A DNA stretch of 64,000 nucleotides from Desulfuromonadales bacterium (GTDB taxonomy: Bacteria; Desulfobacterota; Desulfuromonadia; Desulfuromonadales; JAAXQG01): assembly GCA_012974445.1 (NCBI GenBank), contig JAAXQG010000005.1, positions 4,247 to 68,246 on the forward strand. The letters are read 5' to 3'. This document shows positions 27,879 to 61,977 of the stretch, piece by piece; within the stretch, counting starts at the first letter, position 1, and the number at the start of each line of letters is the position of its first letter. The notes beneath the pieces are model-generated. The model was given only the letters and a program-made list of their open reading frames with translations. It had not been told where the DNA came from and did not search any database. The position numbers and the translations under genes were made by a program.

Positions 27879-27950
27879 ACTGTTCAGGTACCTTTTTTGC
27901 ACAACAGTTTCCAACGTAATGAGATCAATTACTTCCGGAGCCCGGGAGAT

Positions 27951-28463
27951 ATGCTCAAATCGTCTCGTCGTGGAGATTACGAGATCATAAATGCACTGGG
28001 TAATATTTTTCCAACATTCATAAAAAATCCCGAGGAGCTCAAGGAGTCTGTCGATTTTTTCTACTACACCGGCCATGAAGGCTTCCCTGATTTCCTGGAA
28101 GAAGCCCAGCGGGTCGAGCCTAGAGCTTATCGCAGCTCGGATAGAATTCCCCTTCAGTTAAAGGCTCAGATTATCAGAGACAAAACGGATGAAGAGCCCC
28201 TGGAGGTTCAGACTCTGAATATTTCTGAGGCAGGCTGCGCACTAAAACTGAATGAAGAAACTTCGTTTCCCGAAGGAGCTGAATTGCTCCTTAAACTTCA
28301 GGATGTTCACGACGAAGTCACCATTCCAGTCACCGTATGCTGGTATTCCGATGAGAGTGATAATTTTTTCGGTGTCGGCATGCAATTCAAGGATCTTCCC
28401 AAAAAATACAGTGAGAATATTAAACGAATGATACTCCGAGGCATAATTTCGGGAATAAAGTAA
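27951..28463 (+). CDS. PilZ domain protein (putative c-di-GMP receptor)
   Basis: The C-terminal PilZ motifs RSSDR (RxxxR) and NISEAG (D/NxSxxG) are present. The start is uncertain (ATG 27951 versus TTG 27897). Confidence 0.65.
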   Translation: MLKSSRRGDYEIINALGNIFPTFIKNPEELKESVDFFYYTGHEGFPDFLEEAQRVEPRAYRSSDRIPLQLKAQIIRDKTDEEPLEVQTLNISEAGCALKLNEETSFPEGAELLLKLQDVHDEVTIPVTVCWYSDESDNFFGVGMQFKDLPKKYSENIKRMILRGIISGIK

Positions 28464-44382: not shown

Positions 44383-45084
44383 TCAATAAAAAGGCTCGGA
44401 ACACTGGGTAGCCATATACTCGTTTAAAAAGGAACGATCCTCGGCGGCCATTTCTACGAACTCAAGGCCTAGTCCGGTGGGCAGATCTCCCTTTTTCAAC
44501 CATTCGGGATGATTGACCCAGGCCACCCGGGCTCGACACTGAAGGGGGGCTGAACGCTCGGGAAGCTGAAACCTGACATCCAGAATGCGGTTCACCTGTA
44601 AAAGCTCACCTGTCTCTACAAAGAGCCCCCCGATGCTGATGTTTCTGGCACGACCCACGGCGGCGAAGTCATCGGGACCACTGAGAGAACTTTCAAACGC
44701 GACACGATACCGGCTCTTGGCTCTCTGCGTGATCTGGAGCAGAGCACAAACGGCATCAAGAAGTTGAAATGGCAGAGAAAACCGATCCAGAATTCGATCA
44801 GCTGTGCAGTCATACTCCTTCTGCGGTGAATTCACAACCAAAACCACGGGAATGGTCCTCAGGAAAGGGTCGGCCTTGAGACGGCGGCAACAGTCCGCGC
44901 CGCTGAGCTGCGCGAGATCACAAGGCAGGATGATGAGGTCGGGACGATCCTCATCCACCATATCGAGAACCCGAGGACCGTTTTCGGCGATCAGCAGATT
45001 GAATCCTGAGCGATGAAGAAAGCTGTCCTGAAGCTCAGACAGCACATCGTAATCAGTTGCAAAGAGTATTTTTTTTCTCAGCAT
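44383..45084 (-). CDS. degenerate receiver domain - PilZ domain protein
   Basis: The N-terminus has a CheY-like fold, but the phospho-acceptor position reads DLIILP (Pro instead of Asp). The C-terminal PilZ motifs are RAKSR and NISIGG. The start is moved to ATG 45084. Confidence 0.7.
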   Translation of the reverse strand: MLRKKILFATDYDVLSELQDSFLHRSGFNLLIAENGPRVLDMVDEDRPDLIILPCDLAQLSGADCCRRLKADPFLRTIPVVLVVNSPQKEYDCTADRILDRFSLPFQLLDAVCALLQITQRAKSRYRVAFESSLSGPDDFAAVGRARNISIGGLFVETGELLQVNRILDVRFQLPERSAPLQCRARVAWVNHPEWLKKGDLPTGLGLEFVEMAAEDRSFLNEYMATQCSEPFY

Positions 45085-45138
45085 GATCCGCACTCCTTTT
45101 TCTGGTAAGTCGCCAAACAATCCCCCTTGCCACACGCC

Positions 45139-46377
45139 TCAGATCAATCCGATCACGGCTCCGGTAAAAGAGGTGGCCAAAGTGCCGGCCAGAACCGATT
45201 TGCCTCCCAGGGCGATGATTTCACCGCGCCTCTCAGGGGCCATGGCCCCGAGCCCACCGATCATAATCCCCAGACTCCCGAGATTGGCGAATCCGCACAG
45301 AGCGTAGGTCATGATCAACCGACTCTTTTGCCCCAGGGCCTCAGCGGGTAGAGCCGCGAGATCCAGGTAGGCGACAAATTCATTCAAAATGGTCTTGCTC
45401 CCCATCAGGGCACCTGCCACAGGGGCCTGATCCCAGGGAACTCCGATAAGCCAGGTCAGCGGGGCAAAGACCCATCCCAGCAGTCGTTGAAGACTCAGAT
45501 CGTTACCTTTAAATGCAGGAAACAGTCCAAGAATCTGATTCACAATGGAAACAAAGGCGATCAGAACGATAAGCATCGCCATGATATTGAGCAGCAGCTT
45601 CAGTCCATCCGAGGTTCCCCGAACGATGGCATCCATGGCGCTGCCATCGAGTTCCTCGGGGGTGATCGCCCCCTCGGTGGCAGGCTGCCCCTGAGGAATC
45701 AACATCAGGGAAATCATGATAGCTGCCGGGGCACTGATAAGTGAAGCCGTAAGGATTTGCCCCAGGGCATCAGGAAGCACAGGTGAGAGCACCGAAGCAT
45801 AGACGGCAAGCATGGTCCCGGCGATGGTGCTCATGCCGCAGGTCATCACCAGAAAAAGCTCGCTGCGGCTCATGCTGGAGAGATAGGGGCGAATCAGTAG
45901 TGGGGCCTCCACCATGCCGACAAAAACATTCGCGGCCGCGGCGATCCCCGCTGCCCCCCCAATTCCCATGGTGCGGCGCAGGAGAAAACCGAAACCACGA
46001 ACGAACAGGGGAAGAATTTTGAGGTGAAACAACAGTGCCGACAGGGCACTGATGACAAGCACCAGCGGCAGGGCGCGAAAAGCGAAGATATAGCTCGCCC
46101 CGACGTAGGGCTCTTCAAAGGGCAGCGGCCCTCCCCCCAGATAGCCGAAGAGCAGGCTGGTGCCGTCCTGAGTGGCCCGCTCCAGGGCCAGTACCAGCGA
46201 GTTCAGCCCTGAGATAAGCTCCCGGACGGCAGGAACCCCGGTCAGAAGATAGGCCAGAGCGAATTGCAGGGTGATGCCCGTAGCCAGAATTCTCCAAGGA
46301 TAAGCCTTGCGGTTCTCACTCAGCAGGTAGCAGAACGAAGAAATGGCGACAATTCCGAGTACTCCTTGATATTCCAT
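45139..46377 (-). CDS. nupC: NupC/CNT family nucleoside transporter
   Basis: This is a 412-aa polytopic membrane protein with concentrative nucleoside transporter features throughout. Confidence 0.88.
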   Translation of the reverse strand: MEYQGVLGIVAISSFCYLLSENRKAYPWRILATGITLQFALAYLLTGVPAVRELISGLNSLVLALERATQDGTSLLFGYLGGGPLPFEEPYVGASYIFAFRALPLVLVISALSALLFHLKILPLFVRGFGFLLRRTMGIGGAAGIAAAANVFVGMVEAPLLIRPYLSSMSRSELFLVMTCGMSTIAGTMLAVYASVLSPVLPDALGQILTASLISAPAAIMISLMLIPQGQPATEGAITPEELDGSAMDAIVRGTSDGLKLLLNIMAMLIVLIAFVSIVNQILGLFPAFKGNDLSLQRLLGWVFAPLTWLIGVPWDQAPVAGALMGSKTILNEFVAYLDLAALPAEALGQKSRLIMTYALCGFANLGSLGIMIGGLGAMAPERRGEIIALGGKSVLAGTLATSFTGAVIGLI

Positions 46378-46495: not shown

Positions 46496-46729
46496 ATGGT
46501 TCATCCCCTGCCCTTTTTTGTCTATGGAACGCTCTTAAGCGATCAGAAAAACCACCCGACTTACCTAGTTGGAAAAACCCTGAACATTACCCCAGCAAAT
46601 GAACCGGACAGTGTTTATATGAGACAACAAATGCAGGTTTTTATTAATCGGGGCAGGGTTGAATCCGGGGAGTTCAGATGTTTGATGCAAGAGTTGATGG
46701 ATGAGCCAGACAGGCAGGGGGGGAAATAA
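46496..46729 (+). CDS. gamma-glutamylcyclotransferase (AIG2/GGCT)-like protein, short and probably decayed
   Basis: The N-terminal FFVYGTL motif and a weak V.SGEF...ELMDEP segment are present. At only 77 aa it is shorter than typical family members. Confidence 0.3.
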   Translation: MVHPLPFFVYGTLLSDQKNHPTYLVGKTLNITPANEPDSVYMRQQMQVFINRGRVESGEFRCLMQELMDEPDRQGGK

Positions 46730-46743
46730 AATAGAGGGGAAGC

Positions 46744-46774
46744 CGGCCCCATCCTTCTGGTCAGGATGGGGCCG
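46744..46774. terminator. hairpin between convergent GGCT-like ORF and the copper operon
   Basis: A 12-bp stem, CGGCCCCATCCT / AGGATGGGGCCG, encloses a 7-nt loop. A moderately T-rich tract follows on the minus strand. Confidence 0.5.
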
Positions 46775-46791
46775 AAGCTTGTTGTTGCACC

Positions 46792-46968
46792 TCAGTGCTT
46801 ATGAGTGCTGTGGTCGTGGTCAGGAGCAGGGGCACTGAACAGGCTCTGTTCCTCGAGATATTGCACCAGAGCCTCAACTTCCAAAGGATTGAGACTGAGG
46901 TTGGACATGGGCAGATGATTAGATGACTCAAGCAGCTCCATGGCAATCGGGTCTTTTTCCTCGATCAT
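46792..46968 (-). CDS. 58-aa His-tailed mini-protein, or alternatively a frameshifted C-terminal extension of Sco1
   Basis: This ORF is not in the track because it is under 60 aa. Its ATG overlaps the sco1 TGA (ATGA). The sequence is MIEEKDPIAMELLESSNHLPMSNLSLNPLEVEALVQYLEEQSLFSAPAPDHDHSTHKH. The frame stays open for about 70 codons. Confidence 0.4.
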   Translation of the reverse strand: MIEEKDPIAMELLESSNHLPMSNLSLNPLEVEALVQYLEEQSLFSAPAPDHDHSTHKH

Positions 46969-47582
46969 CTTGTCCGGTTCGGCAATCCAACGCTTTTCCA
47001 GTTATGGAGCCAGCTGCCGATCTGGGTCGCCAGAATATAGGGATTTTCAAAGGGGGAGCGTTTCATCCAGCGCCCTGTACGCTGGTTGCCGATGATCAGG
47101 TTCAAATTATGCTCCTCAAGATCGGCACTGTCGGTACTTGCCTCAAAGAGGCCCAGTTTGGTGCGCAGCAACGTGATATCGGACTCTTTTCCGGTCAGGA
47201 AGGTCCACCCGGGCCCGATCTGATAAAGCTCAGTATATTGTTTCAAGACCTCGGGAGTATCAGTATCCGGGTCGATGGTGATGGAATACATGAAAACATC
47301 GGTACCGACCCTGTCTCCCAGTATTTTCTGCATTTCTCTGAGCCTGGCCGTCTCCAGCGGGCAGACATCGGGGCAGCTGGTAAAGATGAAGTTGATTGCC
47401 ACCACCTTATCCTTAACCAGATCATCGAAGAACCGGACCTTCTTCCCTTCGTGGGTAGTCAGTTCCACATTGGGAAAATAATCGGCCCCCCAGGGGCCCC
47501 CGGCCGCATGGGTCTGAGCCGCTGCGAGAAAAGTCACCGATATCCCGAAGATCATCAGGGTTGCCACCAGTTTTTTTCGCAT
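46965..47582 (-). CDS. SCO1/SenC family copper chaperone / thiol-disulfide oxidoreductase
   Basis: It has a signal/anchor sequence, the thioredoxin fold with the CPDVC (CxxxC) copper site, and a downstream conserved His (EEHNLNLII). Confidence 0.85.
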   Translation of the reverse strand: MRKKLVATLMIFGISVTFLAAAQTHAAGGPWGADYFPNVELTTHEGKKVRFFDDLVKDKVVAINFIFTSCPDVCPLETARLREMQKILGDRVGTDVFMYSITIDPDTDTPEVLKQYTELYQIGPGWTFLTGKESDITLLRTKLGLFEASTDSADLEEHNLNLIIGNQRTGRWMKRSPFENPYILATQIGSWLHNWKSVGLPNRTR

Positions 47583-47618
47583 GAAACCTCCTTTTCGTCA
47601 CTCAATTGAGATGAGTAC

Positions 47619-47656
47619 GAAGAAACCGCGACCCTGAAGTACTTCGCGGTTCCTTC
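47619..47656 (-). other. strong intercistronic stem-loop between the multicopper oxidase gene and sco1
   Basis: The 13-bp arms GAAGAAACCGCGA / TCGCGGTTCCTTC have one mismatch and a 12-nt loop. No T-run follows, so this is more likely an mRNA processing or stability element than a terminator. Confidence 0.5.
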
Positions 47657-47674
47657 GTCTGTTTAAATATCAGA

Positions 47675-50602
47675 TCAGAAAGATGTGCCCGTCCCGTCCC
47701 CTGTCCTGAAGGTAGGCAGGGCGGCCGTGTCCACATATTCTACCCCATCCCAGGTGGGAAGTGGAGTCGGCATCAGCTGAAACTGGCCGGGATGCTCGAT
47801 ATCCCACCTCAGCAGCATGGCATTGTCCTCGTGCTGGGTGTTGTGGCAATGCTCCATGTAGGTTCCGGCAAACTCCCTGAAACGAATGGCGATCTCAACA
47901 CTGGAGAGGCTGTCGTCCTGTGGCCCCACACGGTAAACATCCTTCCTGGCCCATTTTTCCCACTCGGGGGGCGCCGCACCGCCGCGCTGCAGGATGATGC
48001 CTTCCTCGAAGTGGACATGGATCGGGTGACTCCAGCCTCCACCATTTTTAATATGCCAGATCTCGAGGGTTCCATCCCCGCTGAAACCGGCCTCAGTAGG
48101 TCCGTTTAACAGAGGAATTGCAGCCGAGAGTCTTCTGGGATCCATGTTGAAACCAGCGCCCCCATCCGTAAGGATCGTCCAAGGCCTGTTGTCGGTCCCG
48201 TTGGACTTGCCAAAGATAAAGGTCCTGTGCCGGGCATTAGCGAGCAGTGCCTGGTCCGCAGGATCGTCCCGGTCGAGGTGCAGGGGGATCATCTTCTTGC
48301 CGCCAGGGACAAATTCAGCCGGATCCATACTCAGGTCCTGCCCCTCATAGGCTTCAACCCGGAATTCGAGGAACCGTCCCACGGTGGGGTCTCCTCCGAC
48401 CCATTGGTCCATAATTCCATCGGCGTCATTATCCTGCCGCTGGGGCAGATAGGCTTCGGAGAGGATATCGACAAGGGGTATCTTGCTGCCGGTGACCTGA
48501 CCGGTGCTATGTTCCAGTACGTTGACCATATAGAGTTTATCGCCGGGCTGGATCCCGTTTTTACTGAAATCCACGATGATGTCGTAGCGCTCTGCAATAG
48601 CCTGGGTCGGCAACATTCCAATGTGTTCCTGCAGGTCCGCATCGCCGTCCAGGTCCATGCTGCCGTCAAAGGGAACGGCATGCTCCATGAGGTTTCCGTC
48701 ATTGGCGACCATATAGAAGGGCATCCGGTCGTAAGAGATATTAGAGCCAACGGGGCCGGGGAACTCTCCCGCGCCGCCTTCTACCTGCCGGACCAGAGCG
48801 ATGGTGAAATACCGGGAGACCGAGCCGTTAAGGATGCGGAAACGATAACTGCGCGCTCTCACCTTTAAGAACGGCTTGTGAAGCCAATTGGTCAGCACGT
48901 TATCTCCCAGAAAACCGTCCTTGTTAAAGATGTTGAACCAGAGCTGTCCCTGCTGGTCCCAGGCCTTGTCGGCCACGAGCAAGTTGATGTCGTAGTCCCT
49001 GTTGCCCCAGGGCAACGCCGTTCCGCTGGGCAGGCGCAGGTTCACGCCGTCATCCAGAGCCTCGTTGCCACGATCCAGGGCGCTGTAATAGTTCATCATG
49101 ACCGCATTGCCCTTGTAGACGTTCTGGGCCGTGAAATCGAGCATATGGTCGTGGAACCAGTGGGTGCTCATGGTCTCGTGCCAGTCGCCACGAATCCTGA
49201 TGGATCCGTTCTGGCAGCTCTTCAAACCTGGATCTGCATCGTTGACGAAGAGTGTCTCCCCATCGGCGCAGGGGAACGCAGCCTTGGGATCGCTCGCATC
49301 GGTATTGATGCTGTCGTAGCCGGCCAGCTGCATCGGCCAGCGGTAATCGTAGAATTGACCAGGGAAGAAGAATGCGTTGGTGTAACCGTCGCTCTCGGCC
49401 GGGGAGTGGCCGTTGTGCTCATGGGTGCTGATGGTATGCAGGCCGAAACCGCGATTGGCCGAGGGGTCGATGGGCAGTGCGTTATAGTGTCGCATGAGAA
49501 TCGGTTGCCCGACCCTGGCCATGAGCAGCTTGGGTGGCAGGGTACCGTCGAAGGTCCAGAGGGCCCTGTGATCCTGAACAGGCATTTTGGGATGAATCCG
49601 AATGCCAAGCCCCTCCGTCGTACCGTCGAGCACCGGAGCACCAGCCACGGTGGGGGCCTCGAAGATCCTGTGATAGAGCCCGCCGGGTGCGAATTCTCCG
49701 AGACTGTACCCGTGCATCTGCCTCAGATCCCGGAATCCGCCGTTGACCCGGGAGCCTGCCTGGGCTGTCTTGAAAAATACCGAAGGGTAAAATTCGTTCC
49801 ATCTCTGGTGCGCCCAGCCTTTGCCCGGAGGACGTCCTTCAGCAGGCGGCGTATCCAGATTACGGCCCAGCAATGACTCGATCTCGGATTTCCAGGGATT
49901 CATATCCGTCGTGTTGGCAAACTCCGTGGGGAACTGCGAGACGCCACTTTCTGCCAGAAAACTCTCTAGCTCGCTACCTCTTGGGGCGCTGCGCGTCACG
50001 CTGGATGGATCCTGTTCCGGTGCCGGACCGGTTTGAGGCTTCGGCAAACGGGAGGAGGAGCCGTTGTCAGCCAGCGGCATGGATTCAGTCCCGAACTCTT
50101 CGAATCTGAGCATCTGCTGCTCAAAAGGTACGGCGCCAAACATGGGACTGGGCAGGCTGTTTGTTGGGATATTAAAGCTGGTCAGATCCGTCTCGGGAAC
50201 CGAGTTGTCAATGCCCGCATCGTGCTCAGTCCCCGTTTCCCCCCCCTCGAAGGCACCCTCATTGGCCGGGCTCAGCAGTGCCAGCTGAGTAGCGGCAAAT
50301 TCCAGGCCGATGAGCGGGCCGGTAAAGACCGAAGGATCCCCTTCCGGAGGAGGACCGAATACATCAGCGGTGGGATCGGGAACGAAGGGTGGAGGGTTCT
50401 CCTGGTCCGTCACCGGCGGGTTGTCGCTTCCCGGACCGATGCCACCGCCGGGTCCGGATGAACCTCCCCCGCTGACGCTTCCGCTTCCACCGCCATCGCA
50501 GCCGTAGAGCATGAAAAATCCGAACAGCAGGGCCAACAGTATCCGCGTGGGTCCTGTCCAAGCTTTTTGTGTACGCACGCCCATACTGGTTTTTGCTCTC
50601 AT
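47675..50602 (-). CDS. large multicopper oxidase, predicted lipoprotein
   Basis: All four MCO copper motifs are present: HTISTHEHNGH, STHWFHDH, HPIHVHFE and HCHNTQHEDNAM. The N-terminus MRAKTS...LLFGFFMLYGC is followed by a Gly/Ser/Pro linker. The start is moved to ATG 50602, preceded by GGGGAGGGAAGGGGA. Confidence 0.88.
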   Translation of the reverse strand: MRAKTSMGVRTQKAWTGPTRILLALLFGFFMLYGCDGGGSGSVSGGGSSGPGGGIGPGSDNPPVTDQENPPPFVPDPTADVFGPPPEGDPSVFTGPLIGLEFAATQLALLSPANEGAFEGGETGTEHDAGIDNSVPETDLTSFNIPTNSLPSPMFGAVPFEQQMLRFEEFGTESMPLADNGSSSRLPKPQTGPAPEQDPSSVTRSAPRGSELESFLAESGVSQFPTEFANTTDMNPWKSEIESLLGRNLDTPPAEGRPPGKGWAHQRWNEFYPSVFFKTAQAGSRVNGGFRDLRQMHGYSLGEFAPGGLYHRIFEAPTVAGAPVLDGTTEGLGIRIHPKMPVQDHRALWTFDGTLPPKLLMARVGQPILMRHYNALPIDPSANRGFGLHTISTHEHNGHSPAESDGYTNAFFFPGQFYDYRWPMQLAGYDSINTDASDPKAAFPCADGETLFVNDADPGLKSCQNGSIRIRGDWHETMSTHWFHDHMLDFTAQNVYKGNAVMMNYYSALDRGNEALDDGVNLRLPSGTALPWGNRDYDINLLVADKAWDQQGQLWFNIFNKDGFLGDNVLTNWLHKPFLKVRARSYRFRILNGSVSRYFTIALVRQVEGGAGEFPGPVGSNISYDRMPFYMVANDGNLMEHAVPFDGSMDLDGDADLQEHIGMLPTQAIAERYDIIVDFSKNGIQPGDKLYMVNVLEHSTGQVTGSKIPLVDILSEAYLPQRQDNDADGIMDQWVGGDPTVGRFLEFRVEAYEGQDLSMDPAEFVPGGKKMIPLHLDRDDPADQALLANARHRTFIFGKSNGTDNRPWTILTDGGAGFNMDPRRLSAAIPLLNGPTEAGFSGDGTLEIWHIKNGGGWSHPIHVHFEEGIILQRGGAAPPEWEKWARKDVYRVGPQDDSLSSVEIAIRFREFAGTYMEHCHNTQHEDNAMLLRWDIEHPGQFQLMPTPLPTWDGVEYVDTAALPTFRTGDGTGTSF

Positions 50603-50934
50603 CTGCTTCCCCTTCCCTCCCCCTGGCAACGGCCTGACATCGGCCAGCAAAAATCCAATTGACAGGCATCACTTGTTGTAAAAACAACCCAGATGTATCA
50701 CCTGTAAAAAGTATGAATCAAATCGAAACATCCTCTATCAGCAAATCTCCACTTCTGGAGCAGGAAAACCCCTATTTCTCTAACAATCTTAACTGTCAAT
50801 AATGCCCATGAAGTACCCGCGCATCGTAGTGGAGATCTAATTGTCTCCCTCTCAGTCTTTTCGTAGGAGCTGCTTCTCTGGGAGTCATCAGGTATGATTG
50901 GAGCAGAGGCTATAAAAAAGGAGATGGGAAAAAC

Positions 50935-51618
50935 ATGGAACCGGATCTTCTTACGAACCCCCTGGTGGCAGTCTTTGCGACCTTCGGCGGCGGCGTGCTG
51001 GCCAGCCTGTCCCCTTGCGTCTACCCGATGGTACCGATCCTCTCGTCCTATATTCTCAGCGGCCAGGGCGCTACGCCCTCGCGCCTTCGAGCCTTGCTGC
51101 TTTCTCTGAGCTACACCTCGGGCATGGCAATCGTTTATGCGGCCCTGGGGATGATAGCAGCCATGTCGGGGCAACTTTTCGGCGCCATAGCCACAAACGG
51201 ACTGACTCTTCTGATTGTCGGTCTGCTCTTCTGTTTCTTTTCCTTGAATATTTTCGGGCTCGTTCCACTGCCTGCATTACGATTCAAACAGGGGAGCCAG
51301 GCTCCGAGAAGCCTGTTCGGCGCCTGGATCATGGGCGCGGCCTCAGGACTTGTAGCCTCACCATGCACATCACCGGTGCTGTTCGGGCTTCTGGGATATG
51401 TGGCCTCGACGCAGAACCTCTATTACGGAGCGGCCCTGCTTTTCGCCTTCGCCATGGGGATGGGTGTTTTACTGATTCTGGCGGGAACCTTCTCGGTCAT
51501 GGTCGCCTCCCGCCCCCGCCCCGGGACCTGGATGGTGCGGGTTCATTTTTTCATGGGGGTGATCATGCTGGCCTTTGGGGGGTATTATATTTTAAGAGCT
51601 TTTGAAACTTTTGCCTGA
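50935..51618 (+). CDS. ccdA: cytochrome c biogenesis / thiol-disulfide transporter CcdA (DsbD-core) family
   Basis: It has LASLSPCVYPMVP and a second conserved Cys in ASPCTSPVL, with six hydrophobic helices. Length is 227 aa. Confidence 0.88.
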   Translation: MEPDLLTNPLVAVFATFGGGVLASLSPCVYPMVPILSSYILSGQGATPSRLRALLLSLSYTSGMAIVYAALGMIAAMSGQLFGAIATNGLTLLIVGLLFCFFSLNIFGLVPLPALRFKQGSQAPRSLFGAWIMGAASGLVASPCTSPVLFGLLGYVASTQNLYYGAALLFAFAMGMGVLLILAGTFSVMVASRPRPGTWMVRVHFFMGVIMLAFGGYYILRAFETFA

Positions 51619-51633
51619 AAGGGGGAACAAACC

Positions 51634-52140
51634 ATGAGAGCGAAGGCATATTCCATAATGGTGTTTATTGGCATTCTGATGCTGTTACCGGCTTCAGCCT
51701 GGTGCCTGGGGCTCGGAGAGCGTATCCCCGATTTCAGCATCGCCACTCTAGAGGGCGAACAGATCTCAAGCAGCGAGCTACGGGGAGAGCCCGCATTGAT
51801 GGTTTTCTGGAACACCTGGTGCTCCAACTGCCGTCGTGAACTCCCCAAAATCGACAAAATCTTACAAAACAACTCCCTCGGCCGGGCGAAGGTTCTGGCA
51901 GTCAACACCAACATCAATGACAGCCTTGCAAAAGCTCGCTCCTACTGGAGCGATACAGAATTGAAATTCACCTCGGGATACGACTCAGATTTCAGCGTTT
52001 CTTCCATTTTTCGAATCATCGGTGTCCCCACCATTCTTCTTTTTGACTCCAACGGAATCCTGCAATACAAGGGAACAAGGCTTCCCCAGGATATTTCCCG
52101 CCTGCTGTACCCTGAGCAGGCATCCCCCCCAGAAGGGTAA
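51634..52140 (+). CDS. periplasmic TlpA/ResA-like thioredoxin
   Basis: It has a signal/anchor sequence, the active site WCSNC and GVPTILLFD. It sits 15 nt downstream of ccdA. Confidence 0.85.
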   Translation: MRAKAYSIMVFIGILMLLPASAWCLGLGERIPDFSIATLEGEQISSSELRGEPALMVFWNTWCSNCRRELPKIDKILQNNSLGRAKVLAVNTNINDSLAKARSYWSDTELKFTSGYDSDFSVSSIFRIIGVPTILLFDSNGILQYKGTRLPQDISRLLYPEQASPPEG

Positions 52141-54617: not shown

Positions 54618-56912
54618 CTATCGGTGGGAGAATTTCTGCGCCAGTTCCTGATCGGTTACATACATGCAGACCTCCCGGGCGCCACGCTTCGTGTAGTTGA
54701 AGTTCTGACAGAGGTTTTTGATCAGAAAAGTAACATCTTCCCGGATACGATCGTCGTAGGTCTTGAACTCAACATTGTTGAAATCCCTGATGGCATTGCG
54801 AAAATTCTGATTCTCCATAAAGGGATCCAAAACTTTCTCCTTCAAATTAAAAACGTAGCGATCATGAAGGTCCTTAAAAAGATACGTTTCTTCCACAGCC
54901 CGGTTTTCAAGCAATATCTCCTGTGTCAGTGTTCTGCCCGCATATCTTTTCTGAACATCACGGCGAAACTGAATCAGGATTTCCGGACTCTCCTGAGATC
55001 CCAGTAATCGCCTCTCGATAGCACCTAGAAAGTCTTCCGTGATCTCAAGACGGTCCGAGGTAAAGCGGCAGGTCTGGGTTGAGCCGATCTCAAAGTTCAC
55101 GGCAAATAGGTAATTCTTGATGTCACGAGCGATCTGGGCTTCGTTGTAGTAGTAGAGGGACTCTTTGACCTCTTGAAGCACGCTGAAATTGTACATGCGT
55201 ACCAGCGAATCCAAAAAGCCCTCAGGGATCATGACGGCGCTGTCCACGGGTAATTTCTGGAAATACTTGTAGAGATTCGTCATATTGATCAAACGGTCTT
55301 TGCGAGCACTCTGAGAAAAGAACTCGCCAAAGAGTTTAATCGCATCGCGCCCCGAAAGACCTTGCCACCCCTCCTTCTCCGATTCATCGATAATCCGTCT
55401 GCGCCTCGTGGCGGTGAGCCGCTTGCGATCCTCCTCAGTGAGCCATTCAGGAATATATCCCCGATAAATTTCCATTTTCAGTAGATGAAGGTTCTCATCG
55501 CAGTACATCGAGTACTTCTTGGGATCCCCAATCCACTCCAACAGTGCATCGCTTGTCTTGTCCAATCGGGTCGAAATGATGGTTCGTGCAAAATTATTAA
55601 GCACCCTCGGAAGGAAGCTCTGCCCCAGATGGCGGGAGAAAATATTCCGATAGATCTCAACTTCCGTCGTAAGATCCATAACATAGGGGATATGGATGTA
55701 CTCGATACGATCGGTGAAGGACTGGAAGTTTTCGATGTGTTTCTTGTCTTCAGGATTCATCAGGGCGAGAAAGAGTGAGTTAACGTTCTCCTCCAGATCC
55801 ACCACCTTATGGACCCCTTCGCTGATGATGTTATGAAGCTCGATGAGTCGGGAGGTGTTATGGGACTTGATATCCATCAGGGCGTAAATGCCGTTATTGG
55901 TCTTGGCGAATTTAGAATAAAGATACTGGACCTCGTTGCTGTCACGCAGCAGCGCATTGATTCGACTTTGCAGTATATCGTTGGTGAGCACATAGTTTTT
56001 GGTGGAATGATCACCGGGATTGAAAACGCTGATTCCCTCGCCGAGCCTGCGGTTGTAACGGTATGGCCGGGCATAGAGCATATTCAGCACCTTGGTGGGA
56101 CTGTGCAATCTCGACAGCAGCGCCTGATAGAGCGATGAGCAAATGGTGCAGGGATTGTTTTTAAAGATCCATTCGTACTCTTTTTCGGTAAAAAGTTTCC
56201 ACTTCTCTTCATCATTGAGAAACAGATCGTCCAGAAATTTACGTCGGACCTCTTTAGGAATGTTCAGCAGCGGATGGTCATGACTCGGGCAGGGGATTTC
56301 GAGATATTCCCCGGTGGAGGAGAGTTCGCGCTGCGCTTCAATCAGTTCGTGTTTTCCCGTTGAAGGCGTCTCAAGCAGTTGCAGAAGTTTTTCTACGGCT
56401 ACGATGGTGTCCTTCTCGGCATGACGGTCGAGCAGACTGCGATCGAGACGCCAGAGAGTTTCATAGCTCATCCCCTCCGGAGTATTGACGTAGTTCTCGA
56501 ACTTGTGCAGCAGGTTGTTCAGGAAAGTACTCTTGCCGCTGCCATGAGGGCCTTCGAAAATATAGATCTTGTTCTGCTGGGCGCCTCGCTTGAATGCTTC
56601 GATCTGGTGAATGAAACGATTGGCGAAGAGGCGGTCAGGAAAAAAAGGATGATCCGAATCCTCGGCAAAAAGACGGCTGCAGTCGTAATACACGAAGTTA
56701 ATCGATTCGGGATCCCCCTCATACTCATCAACCCCGTCATCGATCTGACTCATGACCATGTCATGAAAGAGCTGAAAGACATTGCGACTCACGCGCGAGG
56801 GACGGCGCACCATGATTTTGAGAAAATCGGAAAAAACAACCGCTTCTCCCCGATTTCGCGAGCCTGTGACCTGTTCTATGCCAGTGAGCGCTTTTTCAAT
56901 CGTGTTTTCCAT
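54618..56912 (-). CDS. divergent PrkA-family AAA+ protein (second paralogue)
   Basis: It has Walker A GPHGSGKST. CPSHDHPLLNIP parallels PrkA CPMHEDPLHLIP, and a DRIEYIHIPYVMDL segment is present. The start is moved to ATG 56912, giving 764 aa. Confidence 0.75.
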   Translation of the reverse strand: MENTIEKALTGIEQVTGSRNRGEAVVFSDFLKIMVRRPSRVSRNVFQLFHDMVMSQIDDGVDEYEGDPESINFVYYDCSRLFAEDSDHPFFPDRLFANRFIHQIEAFKRGAQQNKIYIFEGPHGSGKSTFLNNLLHKFENYVNTPEGMSYETLWRLDRSLLDRHAEKDTIVAVEKLLQLLETPSTGKHELIEAQRELSSTGEYLEIPCPSHDHPLLNIPKEVRRKFLDDLFLNDEEKWKLFTEKEYEWIFKNNPCTICSSLYQALLSRLHSPTKVLNMLYARPYRYNRRLGEGISVFNPGDHSTKNYVLTNDILQSRINALLRDSNEVQYLYSKFAKTNNGIYALMDIKSHNTSRLIELHNIISEGVHKVVDLEENVNSLFLALMNPEDKKHIENFQSFTDRIEYIHIPYVMDLTTEVEIYRNIFSRHLGQSFLPRVLNNFARTIISTRLDKTSDALLEWIGDPKKYSMYCDENLHLLKMEIYRGYIPEWLTEEDRKRLTATRRRRIIDESEKEGWQGLSGRDAIKLFGEFFSQSARKDRLINMTNLYKYFQKLPVDSAVMIPEGFLDSLVRMYNFSVLQEVKESLYYYNEAQIARDIKNYLFAVNFEIGSTQTCRFTSDRLEITEDFLGAIERRLLGSQESPEILIQFRRDVQKRYAGRTLTQEILLENRAVEETYLFKDLHDRYVFNLKEKVLDPFMENQNFRNAIRDFNNVEFKTYDDRIREDVTFLIKNLCQNFNYTKRGAREVCMYVTDQELAQKFSHR

Positions 56913-56923
56913 GATCCGCCCTG

Positions 56924-58546
56924 TCAGAGATAGATGTGAGTCAGTTTCCGCCCCTCCATACTGTAAACAACCCTTCGCCACTGAATGTCATAGCTCTCTG
57001 CCCCCTCCCCGGCTCCGGCCCCTTTTTTATTGACGACGGCTTCATTCGTCTCTAGCGACACCTTGGCTCCCCAGAGAAACTCCAGCCCTAACAGGGAGTT
57101 GGCGATAAATTCCTTCACCAACGGTTTTCCCTCGAAACGGTGACGAAGGTAGAGTTCGCCATCGGTTGCGTTATCGCTGATTACCTCGATATAGGGAGGG
57201 TGGTAAAGAGAGTCGAAGACCATCTCCCTGTACGCCTCGGCGCTACGGCTTTTGACATAGTACTGCCAGGTCATACGCTGGGGATTTAGCCGCTTTGCTG
57301 CCACAAAGAGTTCATGGGCATCTACAAAGTCCTGATTGAGGTAGAACTGGATAAAGAGAGAATCACTCAGATTCTCACGGATGGAGAAAATCTTGCTCTG
57401 CCCCTGCCCTGTCTTGAGATCATAGGTTTTGCGAGCACGGGCGTCATTCATACGGCGATACTCCTCCGAGTAGATCCCCCGGTCGCTGCTACGTTCGATA
57501 TGCTCAAAGAGTCGCATGCCTATAGCGTAAGGATTCAGGCCGACTCGGGGTAAAGAGGTGACCTTGGCATGGACCCGGGCGAAATCCACCTCGTGCCCCT
57601 TGATCCTGTCATCCTCCAGAAACAACTTTTCATGCCAGTAGCTGGCCCAGCCTTCGTTCATGATTTTTGTACGGATCTGAGGCTGGAAAAACAGGGAGGT
57701 CTTTCGAACCACCTCGATCACCGGTTTCATCCAGCGATTCTCATCCCGTTTCAGAAAAGGCGAATGGCGCAACAGATATTCCATCAAATCGACGGTCTGC
57801 CCCCTGTCCTGCTTGATGAAATTCTTGTAGCTGCCCTCAAATTCCGGAGCACCCTTTGTGACTTCGACAAAGAAAAGAGCCTCCCCTTGCTTGCCGTAGT
57901 CCCTGCAGAACTGGTTGTAACGACCTATTTCCTTTACGTATTCATTGGTGCTGATGGACTTTTCCTGCTGCAGGAAAACATCAAAGTAATAATCCAGGCG
58001 GGAGATTTTCAATGCTTTTTGAGGCGCAAATTTATCCGACAGATTGCGGTGAAAGGCGACAAGGTTGTCGATACCCCGGGCGAATTCAATCACATAATCG
58101 ACCCATCGTCCCTTCTCGGAGCGCAGTGAAGTAATCATCCGCTTGTCCGAGAGGGCCTGGCCGGTAAAGTCATAATCCCAGGTGTGCCTGAAATAGAGAT
58201 TGTTCTGAAAGAAGTCGATGTGCGCCAGCACGTGATAGAAGATCATCACATTGAGCCAGTCGGGATTGTTGTCGTTATAGAAGGAGATCGCCGGACGGGT
58301 GTTGATGACCGTTTCATAAGGGTTGTTGGGATAGAGTTCGTAGCGGCCCTTTTCCTTGAGCACCTCAACATCCTGAACCCAGTAATCGTAGAGGGTCGGT
58401 ATCATCACTTTAGGGCTCAGCTCCAGGAGATCCCGGTTCGTAACGATGTACTCCAGAGTTTCGCTCTCGAAGCTCAGGCCATGCTTGATCGCCCGCTCCT
58501 TGCACCCCTCCATGATCCGCTTGGTGTGCTGGTTGATGAGTTCCAT
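56924..58546 (-). CDS. spoVR: SpoVR family protein
   Basis: The 540-aa protein has VMIPTLYDYW, FYHVLAHIDFFQNN and NEGWASYWH. Confidence 0.9.
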   Translation of the reverse strand: MELINQHTKRIMEGCKERAIKHGLSFESETLEYIVTNRDLLELSPKVMIPTLYDYWVQDVEVLKEKGRYELYPNNPYETVINTRPAISFYNDNNPDWLNVMIFYHVLAHIDFFQNNLYFRHTWDYDFTGQALSDKRMITSLRSEKGRWVDYVIEFARGIDNLVAFHRNLSDKFAPQKALKISRLDYYFDVFLQQEKSISTNEYVKEIGRYNQFCRDYGKQGEALFFVEVTKGAPEFEGSYKNFIKQDRGQTVDLMEYLLRHSPFLKRDENRWMKPVIEVVRKTSLFFQPQIRTKIMNEGWASYWHEKLFLEDDRIKGHEVDFARVHAKVTSLPRVGLNPYAIGMRLFEHIERSSDRGIYSEEYRRMNDARARKTYDLKTGQGQSKIFSIRENLSDSLFIQFYLNQDFVDAHELFVAAKRLNPQRMTWQYYVKSRSAEAYREMVFDSLYHPPYIEVISDNATDGELYLRHRFEGKPLVKEFIANSLLGLEFLWGAKVSLETNEAVVNKKGAGAGEGAESYDIQWRRVVYSMEGRKLTHIYL

Positions 58547-58573
58547 GCAGGCACCCTTTCCAGGCAGAGAGCA

Positions 58574-59735
58574 TCAGGAGATCAAGTGCTTGATTCCTTC
58601 GATCTGCCGGCTTTCTTCCGAGGTTTCAGGCATCCGGTCCATGCGTAACTGATTGGGCATGGATTCGAGAAGTCCCGAGTTTTTCAGATACTTTTCCACT
58701 TCAGTCTGCCCCGAAGCCGCGTGACTGTGTTCGGCGATGGTGATGCCGACACGGCTGGCGAAACCGAGCATCTTTTTGAGCTCAACGATGGTTTCCTCTC
58801 CGTGGGTATCCCAGTCATCCCCGTCGGTGCCGTGAAAGATATAGATGTTGTAATCCTGAGCCAGATTCTCCTTCTCGACGATCTCGCACACCAGACGGTA
58901 GGCAGCCGCCACCCGGGTTCCCCCGGCAACCTTGGAGCTGTAATAAGTGTAGAAGTCCTTGACCTCGCTGGCCTCAGTATCGTGAAGAATAAAGCGTGTC
59001 TCCACCTGCCGTGCGTACTGATAGGTCAGCCAGCTATAGATCAGAACATGCTGTGTCACGACCAGTTCCGTCGCCTTGCCGGCCATAGAACCCGAATAAT
59101 CCCGAACAAAAAACACCAGGGCCTGAGATTCAAAATCCTTCTCCTTGGAGAGAATGCGGTAAATTCTGTCCTGCGGAGAGATGAGCAGCCCCGTGGTAGT
59201 CGTAGACATAGCGGGTCAGAGATTTTTTCTTCCCTTTGTCCTTGAGGTTGGGAAGTTCAAATTTCTCTGTCAGGATTCTTCCAAGATCGTAGGCGCTGGA
59301 CTCGATTTCGTGCGCGCCCCCCTGTCCCTCACCGGCCTGCCCTTCACCTTCCTGCCCCTCGGGTCGTACGGGCTGCTCACCAATGACTTCCCCCTCCTCC
59401 CCCTTACCGGATCCGCCGCTGCCTTCCTCCTCTTCACTCAGGTGAAGTCGATCATGAAGCAGCTTCTCCTCAACAGTGGTGGGCACGATAACGACCTTGT
59501 CTTTGCCCCCCCCTCCGGGTTTAATCATGCGACCAATACGAATTTTCGGGGGAAAACCGTCCAGAACCCGCAGTCGATCCCGTTCCAGGAGTTCCTCAAG
59601 AGATCGGATGCTGCTCGTATAGCTTCGGGGGCCAAGGGCAGGTTCCGGCACAAGAGACCCGAAAGAAGAACCCTCCGGGACGCCACCCTTTGCAGGCTCT
59701 GGGGTGCTGCCTAAGAAGCCGCGTTGTTTCGCCAT
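58574..59735 (-). pseudogene. yeaH: DUF444 (YeaH/YhbH) family gene split by a +1 frame break
   Basis: Track ORFs 59130..59735 and 58574..59209 encode the N-terminal half (Gly/Glu-rich, ELPNLKDKGKK) and the C-terminal half (VFFVRDYSGSM vWA-like, HGTDGDDWD) of one DUF444 protein. The break is at a G4 run (plus C4, 59189-59192). Confidence 0.8.
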
Positions 59736-59753
59736 ATGCTTCCTTCCCCCTTC

Positions 59754-61814
59754 TCAGGCCTCATCTTCCTGGGTGCAGAAATACTCGATGGTCTTCTGCG
59801 CGCAGGTGCGGCAGTAACCGAGCTTGCCCAGCATGGTCTCGACCATACGATCATAGAGTTTCTGGTTCTCCTCGTTGGTGCGATTAGCCAGGGCTCCGAT
59901 GAGACTACCGGCTCCGGCTATATCGGACTTGAGTCGCACGTCGGTCACAGCCTTGACCAGATCCAGGTTGTCCATGAAATCGTATTCGGGGTCGATGGAG
60001 ATTTTCTGTCCGTAGATTTTCCGGATGGAAGTACGGAAACTCTCACGCTGTTCCTGGGATTTGAGCCCCAGCCGCTCCTCGATACTCTTAACGTATCGCT
60101 CGTCGATCTTGAGCGCCCTGAGTTCGCCGCTCTGAGGGTCCTTGTACTTCCACATCCGATCCGGGCCGAGATTTTCCGCATCAATCCCGATAATCATGTT
60201 GACGTAACTCATCACGTCCTTGCGGATGGCCTGGGGCTCGTCCATGTAGGCGTTGAACATTTCGGTCATCACCCGTTCACGGTAGAGGTTCCGTGCGATC
60301 TTCAGATCTTCCAGGTACTTGGCACGATCCTGGGTATCGGTCACATAATCCAGAATCACCCGCTCGGCAGCGGCAAAAATATCGTACGCGACCATGCACT
60401 GCCCCTCGTTGGTCTCGCTGCTTTCGATCAGCAGCTGCACCATACGCCCGAGATTGCGCTGCCCCAGTCCCTTCTGTCCGAATCTTTTGGTGATATCCGG
60501 CTCCTGATTGAGGGTATCGATGACCTCGGAGAGGGTCTTGATGCTCTTTTCTCCGGCAACTTCCCCGGCGGCAAGTTTCATGGTCTCTATGGAAGAGAGT
60601 TTCTCGGATCTGGGCAGGCGCGTGAGAACGGCGGTGACCGAGGCGGCGTAGTTGAGATTGGGATCCCGATGAAGCAGCTCCCGGTTGATCGTCGTCTTGG
60701 TCTCGCTCCCCAGTGCATAGCCCGTGAGTTCCTGTTGCAGGAGGTAATTAGTGTTGTGGGAGACGTAGCAGATACGGCAGCGATCGACGATGGGCGCTTC
60801 TTCCTTCTCAGCGAGGAAGCGGTTGAATTCTGAGTTATTACTGGTGGCGACGATGAGGGTATCGATGGGCCAGCGATAGCCGTCAATCTCAATAGCTCGG
60901 TTCTGAATGACGCCCAGATAAACCTGAACTAGATCTTTTTTGTTCTTGTAGATCTCGTCGCAGAAGTGAATCCCCCCACCTGCCACTCGAGCCAAGGCTC
61001 CCCGGCGCAGGTCGAAGCGATAAGGGTTGTTTGTATCGGTGATGTGCAGCAGACGCTGGATCGACTCCTCCCCCAGCAGATCAACGGACGAAGAGGTTAT
61101 TTTGTCCTTTGCGGGGTATTTCCCCGTGATCGTGCCCAGACTCTCGTTCAGGGGAACAGGCACGACCTCGATACGCGCGAGCATATCCAGGATCTTGCCA
61201 CCGGTATAATTGCGGATATCGTTCCAGATATAGCCGCTGCAGGCTCCCAGGGGACGATAGTTTTCATAGAGCTTCTGCAGCTCCGCATCGCTGAAGCCAC
61301 CGGTTTTGGCCAGGTACTCACGGCTCTCGTTTGGATCGTCAAATAGATTCATCGCCAGAATCATGGGATCTTCATAGGTCTGGGATTCGATAAAATCAAT
61401 CCGTCCATAGCTACCGAGCTCGACCATCCCCTTGAAACGAAAGGTGTATTTGCGCCACTCGTCTCTGCGAAGAAAATTTCTGTAGAGCGCACAGAGCTCT
61501 TCGACCAGAAAGGTCTTCCCGTTGCCCGGCTCCCCCACCAGCACAAAGGCCATCTCCTTTGATGAACCCCCTTCGGCTGCATCCTTGACGAAACTGACAA
61601 AGGAATTGATCTCATCGAACATGCCGACGGGATGTTTGCCCCCCTGGCGAAATATCTTGAAGTCGTAGGTCGTCTTACCGTTGACCACGACTTTCTCGAT
61701 CCCCCCGGAGAGTAGCATGCGGGAAACCGCCTGAAATGCGTTTTCAAAAACCCTTTTCGACGTTTTTACCTGCTTGATATGATGGACAAGACTGCCCTCC
61801 GTCGTTCTGGCCAT
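59754..61814 (-). CDS. prkA: PrkA family serine protein kinase / AAA+ protein
   Basis: It has Walker A GEPGNGKT, HFCDEIYKNKKDLV and IVATSNNSEF. The start is moved to ATG 61814 (MARTTEG), preceded by GGGGAGG, giving 686 aa. Confidence 0.9.
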   Translation of the reverse strand: MARTTEGSLVHHIKQVKTSKRVFENAFQAVSRMLLSGGIEKVVVNGKTTYDFKIFRQGGKHPVGMFDEINSFVSFVKDAAEGGSSKEMAFVLVGEPGNGKTFLVEELCALYRNFLRRDEWRKYTFRFKGMVELGSYGRIDFIESQTYEDPMILAMNLFDDPNESREYLAKTGGFSDAELQKLYENYRPLGACSGYIWNDIRNYTGGKILDMLARIEVVPVPLNESLGTITGKYPAKDKITSSSVDLLGEESIQRLLHITDTNNPYRFDLRRGALARVAGGGIHFCDEIYKNKKDLVQVYLGVIQNRAIEIDGYRWPIDTLIVATSNNSEFNRFLAEKEEAPIVDRCRICYVSHNTNYLLQQELTGYALGSETKTTINRELLHRDPNLNYAASVTAVLTRLPRSEKLSSIETMKLAAGEVAGEKSIKTLSEVIDTLNQEPDITKRFGQKGLGQRNLGRMVQLLIESSETNEGQCMVAYDIFAAAERVILDYVTDTQDRAKYLEDLKIARNLYRERVMTEMFNAYMDEPQAIRKDVMSYVNMIIGIDAENLGPDRMWKYKDPQSGELRALKIDERYVKSIEERLGLKSQEQRESFRTSIRKIYGQKISIDPEYDFMDNLDLVKAVTDVRLKSDIAGAGSLIGALANRTNEENQKLYDRMVETMLGKLGYCRTCAQKTIEYFCTQEDEA

Positions 61815-61977
61815 GGTGACCTCCCCTGCAGTTGTTATCTCAAACGTCTTGCCCCAGGTTTGTTGTGGGTGCGCCTGCTTTAAAGCTAGCACCCGACCTG
61901 CGAATTTCAATGTTTTGAACAACTCAAGCCCTTAGACAGTGCTTGAAGAGCGGGGAGGAAAAGATCTGTTTTTATTT

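Follow-up and report, generated by a model that had tools for sequence, protein, structure and literature searches.

This report concerns a group of genes around a multicopper oxidase (MCO) in a 64,000-nucleotide (nt) stretch of contig JAAXQG010000005.1 from a Desulfuromonadales bacterium. I will refer to the whole stretch as the window and to its positions 46792-52140 as the locus. An initial annotation, made from the sequence alone, described five open reading frames (ORFs) at the locus as a self-contained module that delivers copper to the oxidase. All five are found where it placed them, and its assignment of four of them to families (MCO, Sco1/SenC, CcdA and a TlpA/ResA-like thioredoxin) is borne out by Pfam. 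The fifth and smallest turns out to be the orphaned end of a larger gene, one that encodes a fusion of Sco and cytochrome c. The features of the locus are as follows, with the basis for each in parentheses.

47675..50584, minus strand: MCO gene (Pfam PF07731)
47618..47657, minus strand: hairpin in the MCO-Sco spacer (fold energy)
46965..47582, minus strand: ORF of 205 amino acids with a Sco1/SenC domain (Pfam PF02630)
46995..46996, minus strand: junction of a deletion, 181 nt absent (DNA comparison with contig L172)
46792..46968, minus strand: His-tailed ORF of 58 codons, the orphaned 3' end of the fusion gene (identity with protein P0243)
46740..46780, minus strand: GC-rich hairpin immediately 3' of the Sco-cytochrome c stop codon (fold energy)
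50585..50934, no strand: intergenic region between the divergent MCO and ccdA genes (reading of the sequence)
50935..51618, plus strand: CcdA, 227 amino acids (Pfam PF02683)
51634..52140, plus strand: TlpA/ResA-like thioredoxin, 168 amino acids (Pfam Redoxin/AhpC-TSA)

The MCO is 969 amino acids long from its publicly annotated start at 50584; alternative starts at 50602 and 50650 give up to 991. At the N-terminus, what reads as a signal of the lipoprotein type (...FFMLYGC) is followed by a Gly/Ser-rich linker, and an N-terminal extension of about 340 residues contains no known domain. Sec-exported cuproenzymes receive their metal outside the cytoplasm, and since this protein has an N-terminus of the Sec/lipoprotein type, its copper would be inserted there as well. 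The core is three-domain and resembles CotA and bilirubin oxidase: Pfam finds the C-terminal Cu-oxidase_2 domain (PF07731) alone, and sequence matches in the PDB (bilirubin oxidase, CotA and CueO) are limited to residues ~470-940. The T1 and T2/T3 motifs are complete. HEHNGH, WFHDH, HPIHVH and HCHNTQHEDNAM, which supply the ligands H388/H390, H478/H480, H853/H856/H858 and H912-C913-H914...H918...M923, are all invariant in an alignment of 16 sequences (A1), and so are two cysteines that are not ligands, C439 and C457.

Homologues scored at E ≤ 1e-10 number 3,848, with identities of 64-82%. The hosts of the family include Desulfuromonadales, Syntrophobacteraceae, Acidobacteriota, Nitrospirota, Rhodocyclaceae, Ramlibacter and many Pseudomonas, and many of the homologues bear the name "manganese oxidase" at the Joint Genome Institute. 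Over some 890 residues, the window's MCO shares 64-68% identity with those Pseudomonas MCOs that precede a Sco-cytochrome c gene, P. putida II-2 (L072) among them. Against the CueO equivalog it scores 62.7 bits, below the cut-off of 525. Judged by its sequence, the protein is not of the CueO/CutO type and probably belongs to the family of McoA-type "manganese oxidases" of Pseudomonas. Mn(II) is a candidate substrate for it in the Desulfuromonadales host.

CcdA (PF02683, E 2e-45, 155 bits against a cut-off of 27.1) carries the cysteine motifs SPCVYP and SPCTSP and none of the periplasmic domains of DsbD. It is 45-53% identical to the CcdA proteins of related loci (L001, L003, L089, L092, L128 and L166-L171), and from its family it is predicted to be a membrane thiol-disulfide electron transporter of the CcdA type. 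The thioredoxin has a hydrophobic N-terminus (signal or anchor) and the active site W-C63-S-N-C66, which is invariant in a second alignment (A3). It matches the Pfam families Redoxin, AhpC-TSA and Thioredoxin, and falls below the NCBIfam cut-offs for ResA (65.7 bits, cut-off 170), TlpA (52.1, cut-off 230), DsbE (34.6, cut-off 359) and also StoA. Its sequence assigns it to a distinct subfamily, with the motif FWNTWCxxC...NTxxNDSE, outside the TlpA and ResA equivalogs. A second periplasmic thiol-disulfide protein, resembling DsbA and DsbC (Thioredoxin_2, Thioredoxin_4), is encoded elsewhere in the window, at 12499-13287 on the plus strand, 35 kb from the locus.

The MCO and ccdA genes are transcribed divergently and their starts are 332-350 nt apart, in keeping with the 332 base pairs given by the initial annotation. 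The region between them, 50585-50934, is presumed to regulate both transcription units. A scan of this region for the sigma-70 consensus gave nothing above background, and consensus scans of the locus for promoters and terminators gave nothing above shuffled background. The 92-nt spacer from the MCO stop to the Sco start does contain the stem-loop that had been noted there, a hairpin of 14 base pairs and -28.9 kcal/mol (z -3.46; equalled by 0 of 200 shuffles). It is not followed by a run of U, nor did the consensus terminator scan list it; in L081, the closest relative, the matching spacer forms another hairpin, one with a U-run after it. The hairpin in the window is probably a partial terminator or an element that stabilizes the transcript. 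The GC-rich hairpin at 46740-46780 (-33.8 kcal/mol, z -4.66, likewise equalled by none of 200 shuffles) is likely the operon terminator.

The other large ORFs of the window, as scanned with Pfam, are housekeeping genes only. They include no cytochrome oxidase, whose absence had been remarked upon earlier, and no c-type cytochrome or ccm/res gene. Genes for a copper exporter or a source of copper are likewise missing from the locus, and the module is not self-contained.

A Sco-cytochrome c gene in two pieces

The Sco ORF matches PF02630 over residues 40-152 (78.7 bits, cut-off 22.8). It has a signal or anchor, a CxxxC motif (C70-PDV-C74) and, about 85 residues further on, a candidate His ligand, H158, a spacing that presumably resembles that of Bacillus subtilis Sco. 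The copper ligands of the domain appear intact, and it is predicted to bind copper. However, only codons 1-196 are those of the 5' part of a Sco-cytochrome c fusion gene; they are followed by nine out-of-frame codons and a stop.

The 58-codon ORF overlaps that stop (ATGA) and ends in HDHSTHKH. It had been proposed as a small copper-binding His protein, a component of the copper delivery chain in its own right. That proposal is rejected, since the ORF by itself has no match in Pfam or NCBIfam, lacks a signal peptide, and has the same sequence as the C-terminal end of an intact fusion. The intact protein, P0243, was found by a look-up of exact-sequence clusters and comes from a Logan assembly of run SRR8346064. 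It is a Sco-cytochrome c protein of 323 amino acids, to which residues 1-196 of the Sco ORF are identical, as is the 58-codon ORF to its last 58 residues. The contig that encodes it, L172, is 100% identical to positions 46680-47861 of the window (866 + 316 nt, 1,182 nt in all), with 181 extra nt between window positions 46996 and 46995. The extra nucleotides encode LPPRQEQNYAEAPKLRDVTRGETLYRTRCGSCHSLGDEQGASSIGPDLLNVTERRDRKWLK. This stretch comprises the linker and the first half of the cytochrome c domain, the half that binds haem; its haem site, CGSCH, is present in P0243 and deleted in the window.

The deletion of 181 nt shifts the frame by +1, and Sco consequently terminates nine codons on, with its stop at 46965. 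With the frame broken at 46995/46996, Sco and the haem domain are not one polypeptide in the window. A conserved internal Met (...AEPDKM...) provides a start for the last 58 codons, which thereby remain an ORF, though the homologous frame is open from 46995. They retain the region of the Met ligand (...LPMSNL...), the C-terminal helix and the His tail.

Related loci give the same picture. When 162 of them were searched by tblastn, the match to the 58-codon ORF always lay about 220 nt past the end of the match to Sco. Both matches fall within a single ORF of 335-346 amino acids in L001 (a metagenome-assembled genome, or MAG, of Syntrophobacteraceae), L002 (a Geopsychrobacter MAG) and L081, the closest relative, whose MCO is 82% identical. 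In each of these ORFs a linker joins the Sco domain to a CxxCH-bearing monohaem cytochrome c domain, and the 58-codon ORF is homologous to their C-termini. An alignment of the DNA of L081 with that of the window shows a clean gap of 193 nt in the window at the site of the deletion. The His-rich tail is an optional C-terminal extension, found in 28 of 106 fusions. The publicly annotated genes of 205 and 58 amino acids are halves of one gene, of which this assembly keeps a complete, stand-alone Sco domain and a remnant of 58 codons.

There is no microhomology at the deletion junction, and replication slippage between repeats was rejected as its cause on that account. Given that the two versions differ by no substitution over 1,182 nt, the deletion is either a very recent variant at the level of the strain or an artefact of assembly or amplification.

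Two other genes of the window look damaged. A DUF444/YeaH-like gene (58574-59735, minus strand), part of a PrkA-SpoVR-DUF444-PrkA cluster at 54618-61922 and less than 12 kb from the deletion, is frameshifted and falls into two ORFs that overlap, 59130-59735 (profile positions 47-150) and 58574-59209 (profile positions 225-361). An ORF of the gamma-glutamyl cyclotransferase-like family GGACT (46496-46729, plus strand) is only 77 amino acids long, and only its first ~34 residues resemble the 163-amino acid gene at the same position in L081. A second disrupted gene (DUF444) so near the deletion suggests either an error-prone assembly or a genome rich in pseudogenes; a low-quality assembly may lie behind the damaged genes.

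Neighbours of the oxidase in related genomes

The initial annotation had called for a comparison of the five-gene arrangement across genomes. Its fifth gene drops out, being a remnant, but the rest of the arrangement recurs, Sco more widely than the CcdA/thioredoxin pair. The sample consisted of 162 non-redundant MCO loci, of which 144 were informative in that they had at least 1.5 kb of downstream flank. In 107 of the 144, the MCO is followed by a Sco gene of the same orientation. Complete Sco ORFs with CxxCH, i.e., Sco-cytochrome c fusions, account for 106 of these 107. These counts, with those of the thioredoxin-centred loci described below, put the gene linkage far beyond chance, and the partner of an McoA-family MCO is almost always the fusion rather than the plain Sco that had been supposed. 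This opens the possibility of a redox role for the partner, or of a role for the TlpA-like protein in haem attachment.

The fusion has a counterpart of known structure: its cytochrome c domain matches PDB 2L4D ("SCO1/SenC family protein/cytochrome c") with an E-value of 1e-29, and in L103 and L105 copies of the 2L4D protein (97% identity) lie directly 3' of the MCO. I take 2L4D to be PP3183 of P. putida KT2440 (Banci et al. 2011, J Biol Inorg Chem 16:391). Some loci have tandem copies of the MCO (L009 10001-15658; L073 4708-11018; L087 964-7173; L127 2281-9898), and in L127 the entire MCO-Sco unit is duplicated.

A link between Sco and an MCO, counted as unexplored by the initial annotation, is already documented as a gene neighbourhood in the literature on Mn oxidation. 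In P. putida GB-1 and in new Pseudomonas isolates, mcoA and a downstream SCO1/SenC gene form the conserved core of the mcoA operon, and the mnxG operon contains two more SCO1/SenC genes (PMC11409713). SCO1/SenC and cytochrome c genes are also found in the ompB cluster of Geobacter, where the former is GSU1398, and in the MofA-like clusters of iron oxidizers (PMC5566968).

The association of CcdA and the TlpA-like protein with the MCO and Sco-cytochrome c looks new: the literature was searched and no paper was found that brings CcdA, TlpA, Sco and a multicopper oxidase together. Within the MCO-centred sample, thioredoxins of the subfamily occur in L001, L003, L082, L089, L092 and L128, adjoined by CcdA in all except L082, and the pair or the thioredoxin is confined to the MCOs most similar to that of the window. 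A profile of the subfamily, built from seven sequences taken from the loci (those of alignment A3), matched 319 proteins at E ≤ 1e-10, and the six members on the longest contigs, L166-L171, made up a second sample, centred on the thioredoxin. The pair is found in three arrangements: divergent and upstream of the MCO (the window and L003), co-directional after Sco-cytochrome c (L001), and convergent after Sco-cytochrome c (L089, L092, L128, L166 and L167). The thioredoxin of L082 stands alone, directly 3' of the MCO. The association persists through three different orders of the genes, which speaks well for their being functionally linked.

The gene content of the six thioredoxin-centred loci is as follows.

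L166: CcdA adjacent; Sco-cytochrome c intact; MCO intact
L167: CcdA adjacent; Sco-cytochrome c intact; MCO intact
L168: CcdA adjacent; Sco-cytochrome c a fragment; MCO in fragments
L169: CcdA adjacent; Sco-cytochrome c intact; only the last 82 codons of the MCO
L170: CcdA adjacent; Sco-cytochrome c intact; no MCO nearby; the MAG has one on a different contig (L006)
L171: CcdA adjacent; Sco-cytochrome c intact; a frameshifted copy of the MCO

CcdA is thus present in six of six, Sco-cytochrome c in six of six (five intact, one remnant) and the MCO in five of six (two intact, three remnants). The tightest link of the pair is with the Sco-cytochrome c gene. L168, L169 and L171 might have been counted as loci without an MCO; this was rejected when re-examination by tblastn showed MCO remnants (L168 8208-8690; L169 8367-8612; L171 4697-7413). 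The MCO decays repeatedly while CcdA/TlpA persist, as does Sco-cytochrome c in L169 and L171. The contig of L171 has a name typical of long-read assemblers, and the frameshifts in its MCO may be sequencing errors.

Genes for a HisKA_3 sensor kinase and a GerE/NarL-type response regulator recur beside the modules of relatives (L084 7754-9738; L166 14876-15490, regulator only; L167 16723-18997; L169 6146-8316; L170 7212-9282) and may regulate them. The window has no pair of this kind.

Further out, the window and L081 share a conserved backbone (RR-PilZ, RlmL, AMP-binding) around which the two lineages have lost different genes. The nucleoside transporter NupC, for example, is full length in the window (412 amino acids, 45139-46377) and a 67-amino acid fragment in L081 (4725-4928). 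The window encodes two PilZ-domain proteins (44383-45135, minus strand, and 27897-28463, plus strand). One of them is fused to a response-regulator receiver domain, and L081 keeps this receiver-PilZ gene in the matching place.

Possible roles of the linked genes

The reading that I favour, and consider fairly probable, is that the locus is a module of accessory genes for an exported lipoprotein MCO of the McoA family (Mn-oxidase type): Sco-cytochrome c is the partner of the oxidase, and CcdA and the TlpA-like protein have joined them in some lineages, that of the window included. From the gene identities, the integrity of the motifs, the deletion and the conserved linkage, I infer a series of electron- and copper-transfer steps. 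CcdA proteins hand reducing equivalents outward to thioredoxin-like proteins, and the CcdA of the locus, going by its family, would move them from the cytoplasm across the membrane. The TlpA-like protein would keep the cysteines of Sco-cytochrome c reduced, those of the CxxxC copper site and possibly those of the CxxCH haem-attachment site too. The Sco domain would take up copper, and the fused haem domain would set the redox state of the copper or of the thiols. Finally, Sco-cytochrome c would mature the MCO, or service it by redox reactions, the oxidase being metallated in the periplasm. Transfer of copper from Sco to the MCO is a matter of conjecture. As a linked module, a chain from CcdA/TlpA to Sco to MCO is plausible.

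There is a precedent and some indirect support. TlpA is described as reducing both ScoI, at its CxxxC, and CoxB, at its CuA cysteines, ahead of metallation (Abicht 2014, as cited in PMC7558416). Mn oxidation fell in a Pseudomonas with mcoA and Sco when Tn5 disrupted a TlpA-like gene belonging to a dsbD operon, as seen in four independent insertions (PMC11409713), and the same paper cites work in which ccm genes are required for Mn oxidation by P. putida. An accessory protein that contains haem would explain why Mn oxidation depends on ccm.

Several observations weigh on the other side. About a quarter of the related MCO loci have no adjacent Sco. None of the loci from Pseudomonas, Ramlibacter and Rhodocyclaceae, which are most of the MCO loci, has the CcdA/TlpA pair, and in L082 the thioredoxin sits beside an MCO with neither Sco nor CcdA. 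The module has decayed in several lineages as well as in the window, which could mean that it is dispensable. Banci et al. 2011 reportedly took the Sco/cytochrome c fusion as a redox protein, not a simple copper donor. The literature search found no experiment in any organism that ties Sco-cytochrome c to the activity of an MCO. Lastly, CutO of Rhodobacter capsulatus, an MCO of the CueO type, does not need SenC, a Sco homologue (PMC8456105).

In all six thioredoxin-centred loci the CcdA/TlpA-like pair is linked most tightly to Sco-cytochrome c, whether intact or a remnant, and the pair might instead be a private aid to cytochrome c maturation, which reduces the CxxCH of the fused domain for haem attachment, in the manner of ResA/CcsX, and not the copper site of Sco. 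CcdA and ResA are the canonical reductant pair of System II in textbooks, and ResA is the best of the thioredoxin's NCBIfam scores, ahead of TlpA. The need for ccm genes in Mn oxidation by Pseudomonas, as cited in PMC11409713, also fits. However, both the ResA and the TlpA score are so far under their cut-offs that neither assignment holds. In addition, a tie of the pair to cytochrome c maturation, which the initial annotation had named as the outcome that would speak against its proposal, is not seen in its surroundings: there are no ResB/ResC/CcsBA or Ccm genes with the pair in the window or the six thioredoxin-centred loci, nor in any other locus examined. The TlpA-like gene of L082 adjoins an MCO with no cytochrome c domain nearby. 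The pair is intact in the window despite the deletion of CxxCH, but the deletion may be too recent, or too likely an artefact, to carry much weight. On this evidence I regard a pure maturation aid as unlikely.

That a haem domain is fused to Sco almost universally (106 of 107) raises another alternative, in which Sco-cytochrome c is a redox partner of the MCO and not a copper chaperone. The haem domain would shuttle electrons to or from the oxidase, for example from cytochrome to oxygen in a microaerotolerant metal reducer, or the Sco domain would act as a thiol-disulfide oxidoreductase on cysteines of the MCO. The invariant non-ligand cysteines C439 and C457 are candidates for the latter, and MofC-like cytochrome c genes accompany other large MCOs (PMC5566968). 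Against it, MCOs draw electrons straight from their substrates, according to the textbooks, and need no dedicated donor, and the copper ligands of Sco (CxxxC and His) are conserved. I would give this alternative rather little credence.

That the module is a decaying relic in this genome, its genes no longer cooperating and its deletion the result of relaxed selection, is very improbable: the deletion itself, the MCO fragments beside intact CcdA/TlpA in L168 and L169, the frameshifted MCO of L171 and the damaged DUF444 and GGACT genes speak for it, but the MCO, Sco domain, CcdA and TlpA-like protein are full length with intact active-site motifs, the remnant ORF is without a single substitution relative to the intact allele (a better fit to a very recent event or an artefact than to long decay), and the other damaged genes may equally reflect an error-prone assembly.

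The accessory-module reading can be carried one step further, though only tentatively. CcdA, the FWNTWCxxC thioredoxin and Sco-cytochrome c may constitute a dedicated periplasmic relay, in which reductant comes in, copper and thiols are poised and metal is handed over, and which McoA-family MCOs require for their activation. If so, a Sco-dependent route of MCO maturation would be defined genetically for the first time, and there would be an explanation for the recurrence of genes for cytochrome c maturation, DsbD and TlpA-like proteins in Pseudomonas screens for loss of MCO-dependent Mn oxidation. How exported MCOs acquire their four copper atoms is largely unknown, and the sole Sco homologue to have been tested, SenC of Rhodobacter, is dispensable for an MCO of the CueO type. 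The linkage described here offers a testable candidate of four genes for the maturation or redox support of MCOs, a pathway that would be relevant to Mn oxidation by bacteria and perhaps to metal respiration.

Comparison with known systems

The CcdA-ResA pair of System II in Bacillus subtilis consists of the same two protein families, side by side and in the same order. The window differs in that ResB and ResC are missing, the thioredoxin is under the ResA cut-off, and the conserved neighbours are Sco-cytochrome c and the MCO.

The genes of the TlpA, ScoI and CoxB pathway in Bradyrhizobium japonicum are presumably not clustered with CcdA as they are at the window's locus. As described in PMC7558416, this pathway too has a thioredoxin-fold reductase and a Sco protein that can take up copper only once its CxxxC is reduced, and it serves as the mechanistic model for the chain proposed here. 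Its target is subunit II of cytochrome oxidase, here replaced by an MCO, and the thioredoxin of the window is no orthologue of TlpA (52 bits against 230).

CutO of Rhodobacter capsulatus, with CutF and CutG, provides a case of a periplasmic MCO that matures only with the help of a small accessory protein, in which a CxxxC motif is essential. CutO, however, is a copper-detoxifying MCO of the CueO type, its activity is independent of SenC, and CutF is unrelated to Sco (PMC8456105).

The ompB cluster of Geobacter sulfurreducens (GSU1394, MCO; GSU1397, cytochrome c; GSU1398, SCO1/SenC) and mofABC of Leptothrix likewise combine a large MCO, extracellular or at the outer surface, with Sco and cytochrome c, and their hosts are metal-respiring and metal-oxidizing bacteria (PMC5566968). 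By their description in the same paper, OmpB and MofA belong to a different MCO family from that of the window, being longer and having a fibronectin III domain. Cytochrome c and Sco are separate genes in these clusters, and no CcdA/TlpA is reported for them (PMC5566968).

The fusion of PDB 2L4D has the two-domain architecture of P0243 and of 106 of the 107 relatives, and its orthologues, at 97% identity, are adjacent to MCOs. It differs from the gene in the window, which is split and has lost its haem site, and whose lineage has the His-rich tail.

In P. putida GB-1, mcoA stands with SCO1/SenC in an operon for a Mn(II) oxidase (PMC11409713). The Desulfuromonadales host of the window, whose nearest relatives are L002, L003, L006 and L081, is only a candidate Mn oxidizer, and the Pseudomonas loci do not have the adjoining CcdA/TlpA. 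The two are alike in having a large MCO of the same sequence family and a Sco gene directly downstream on the same strand.

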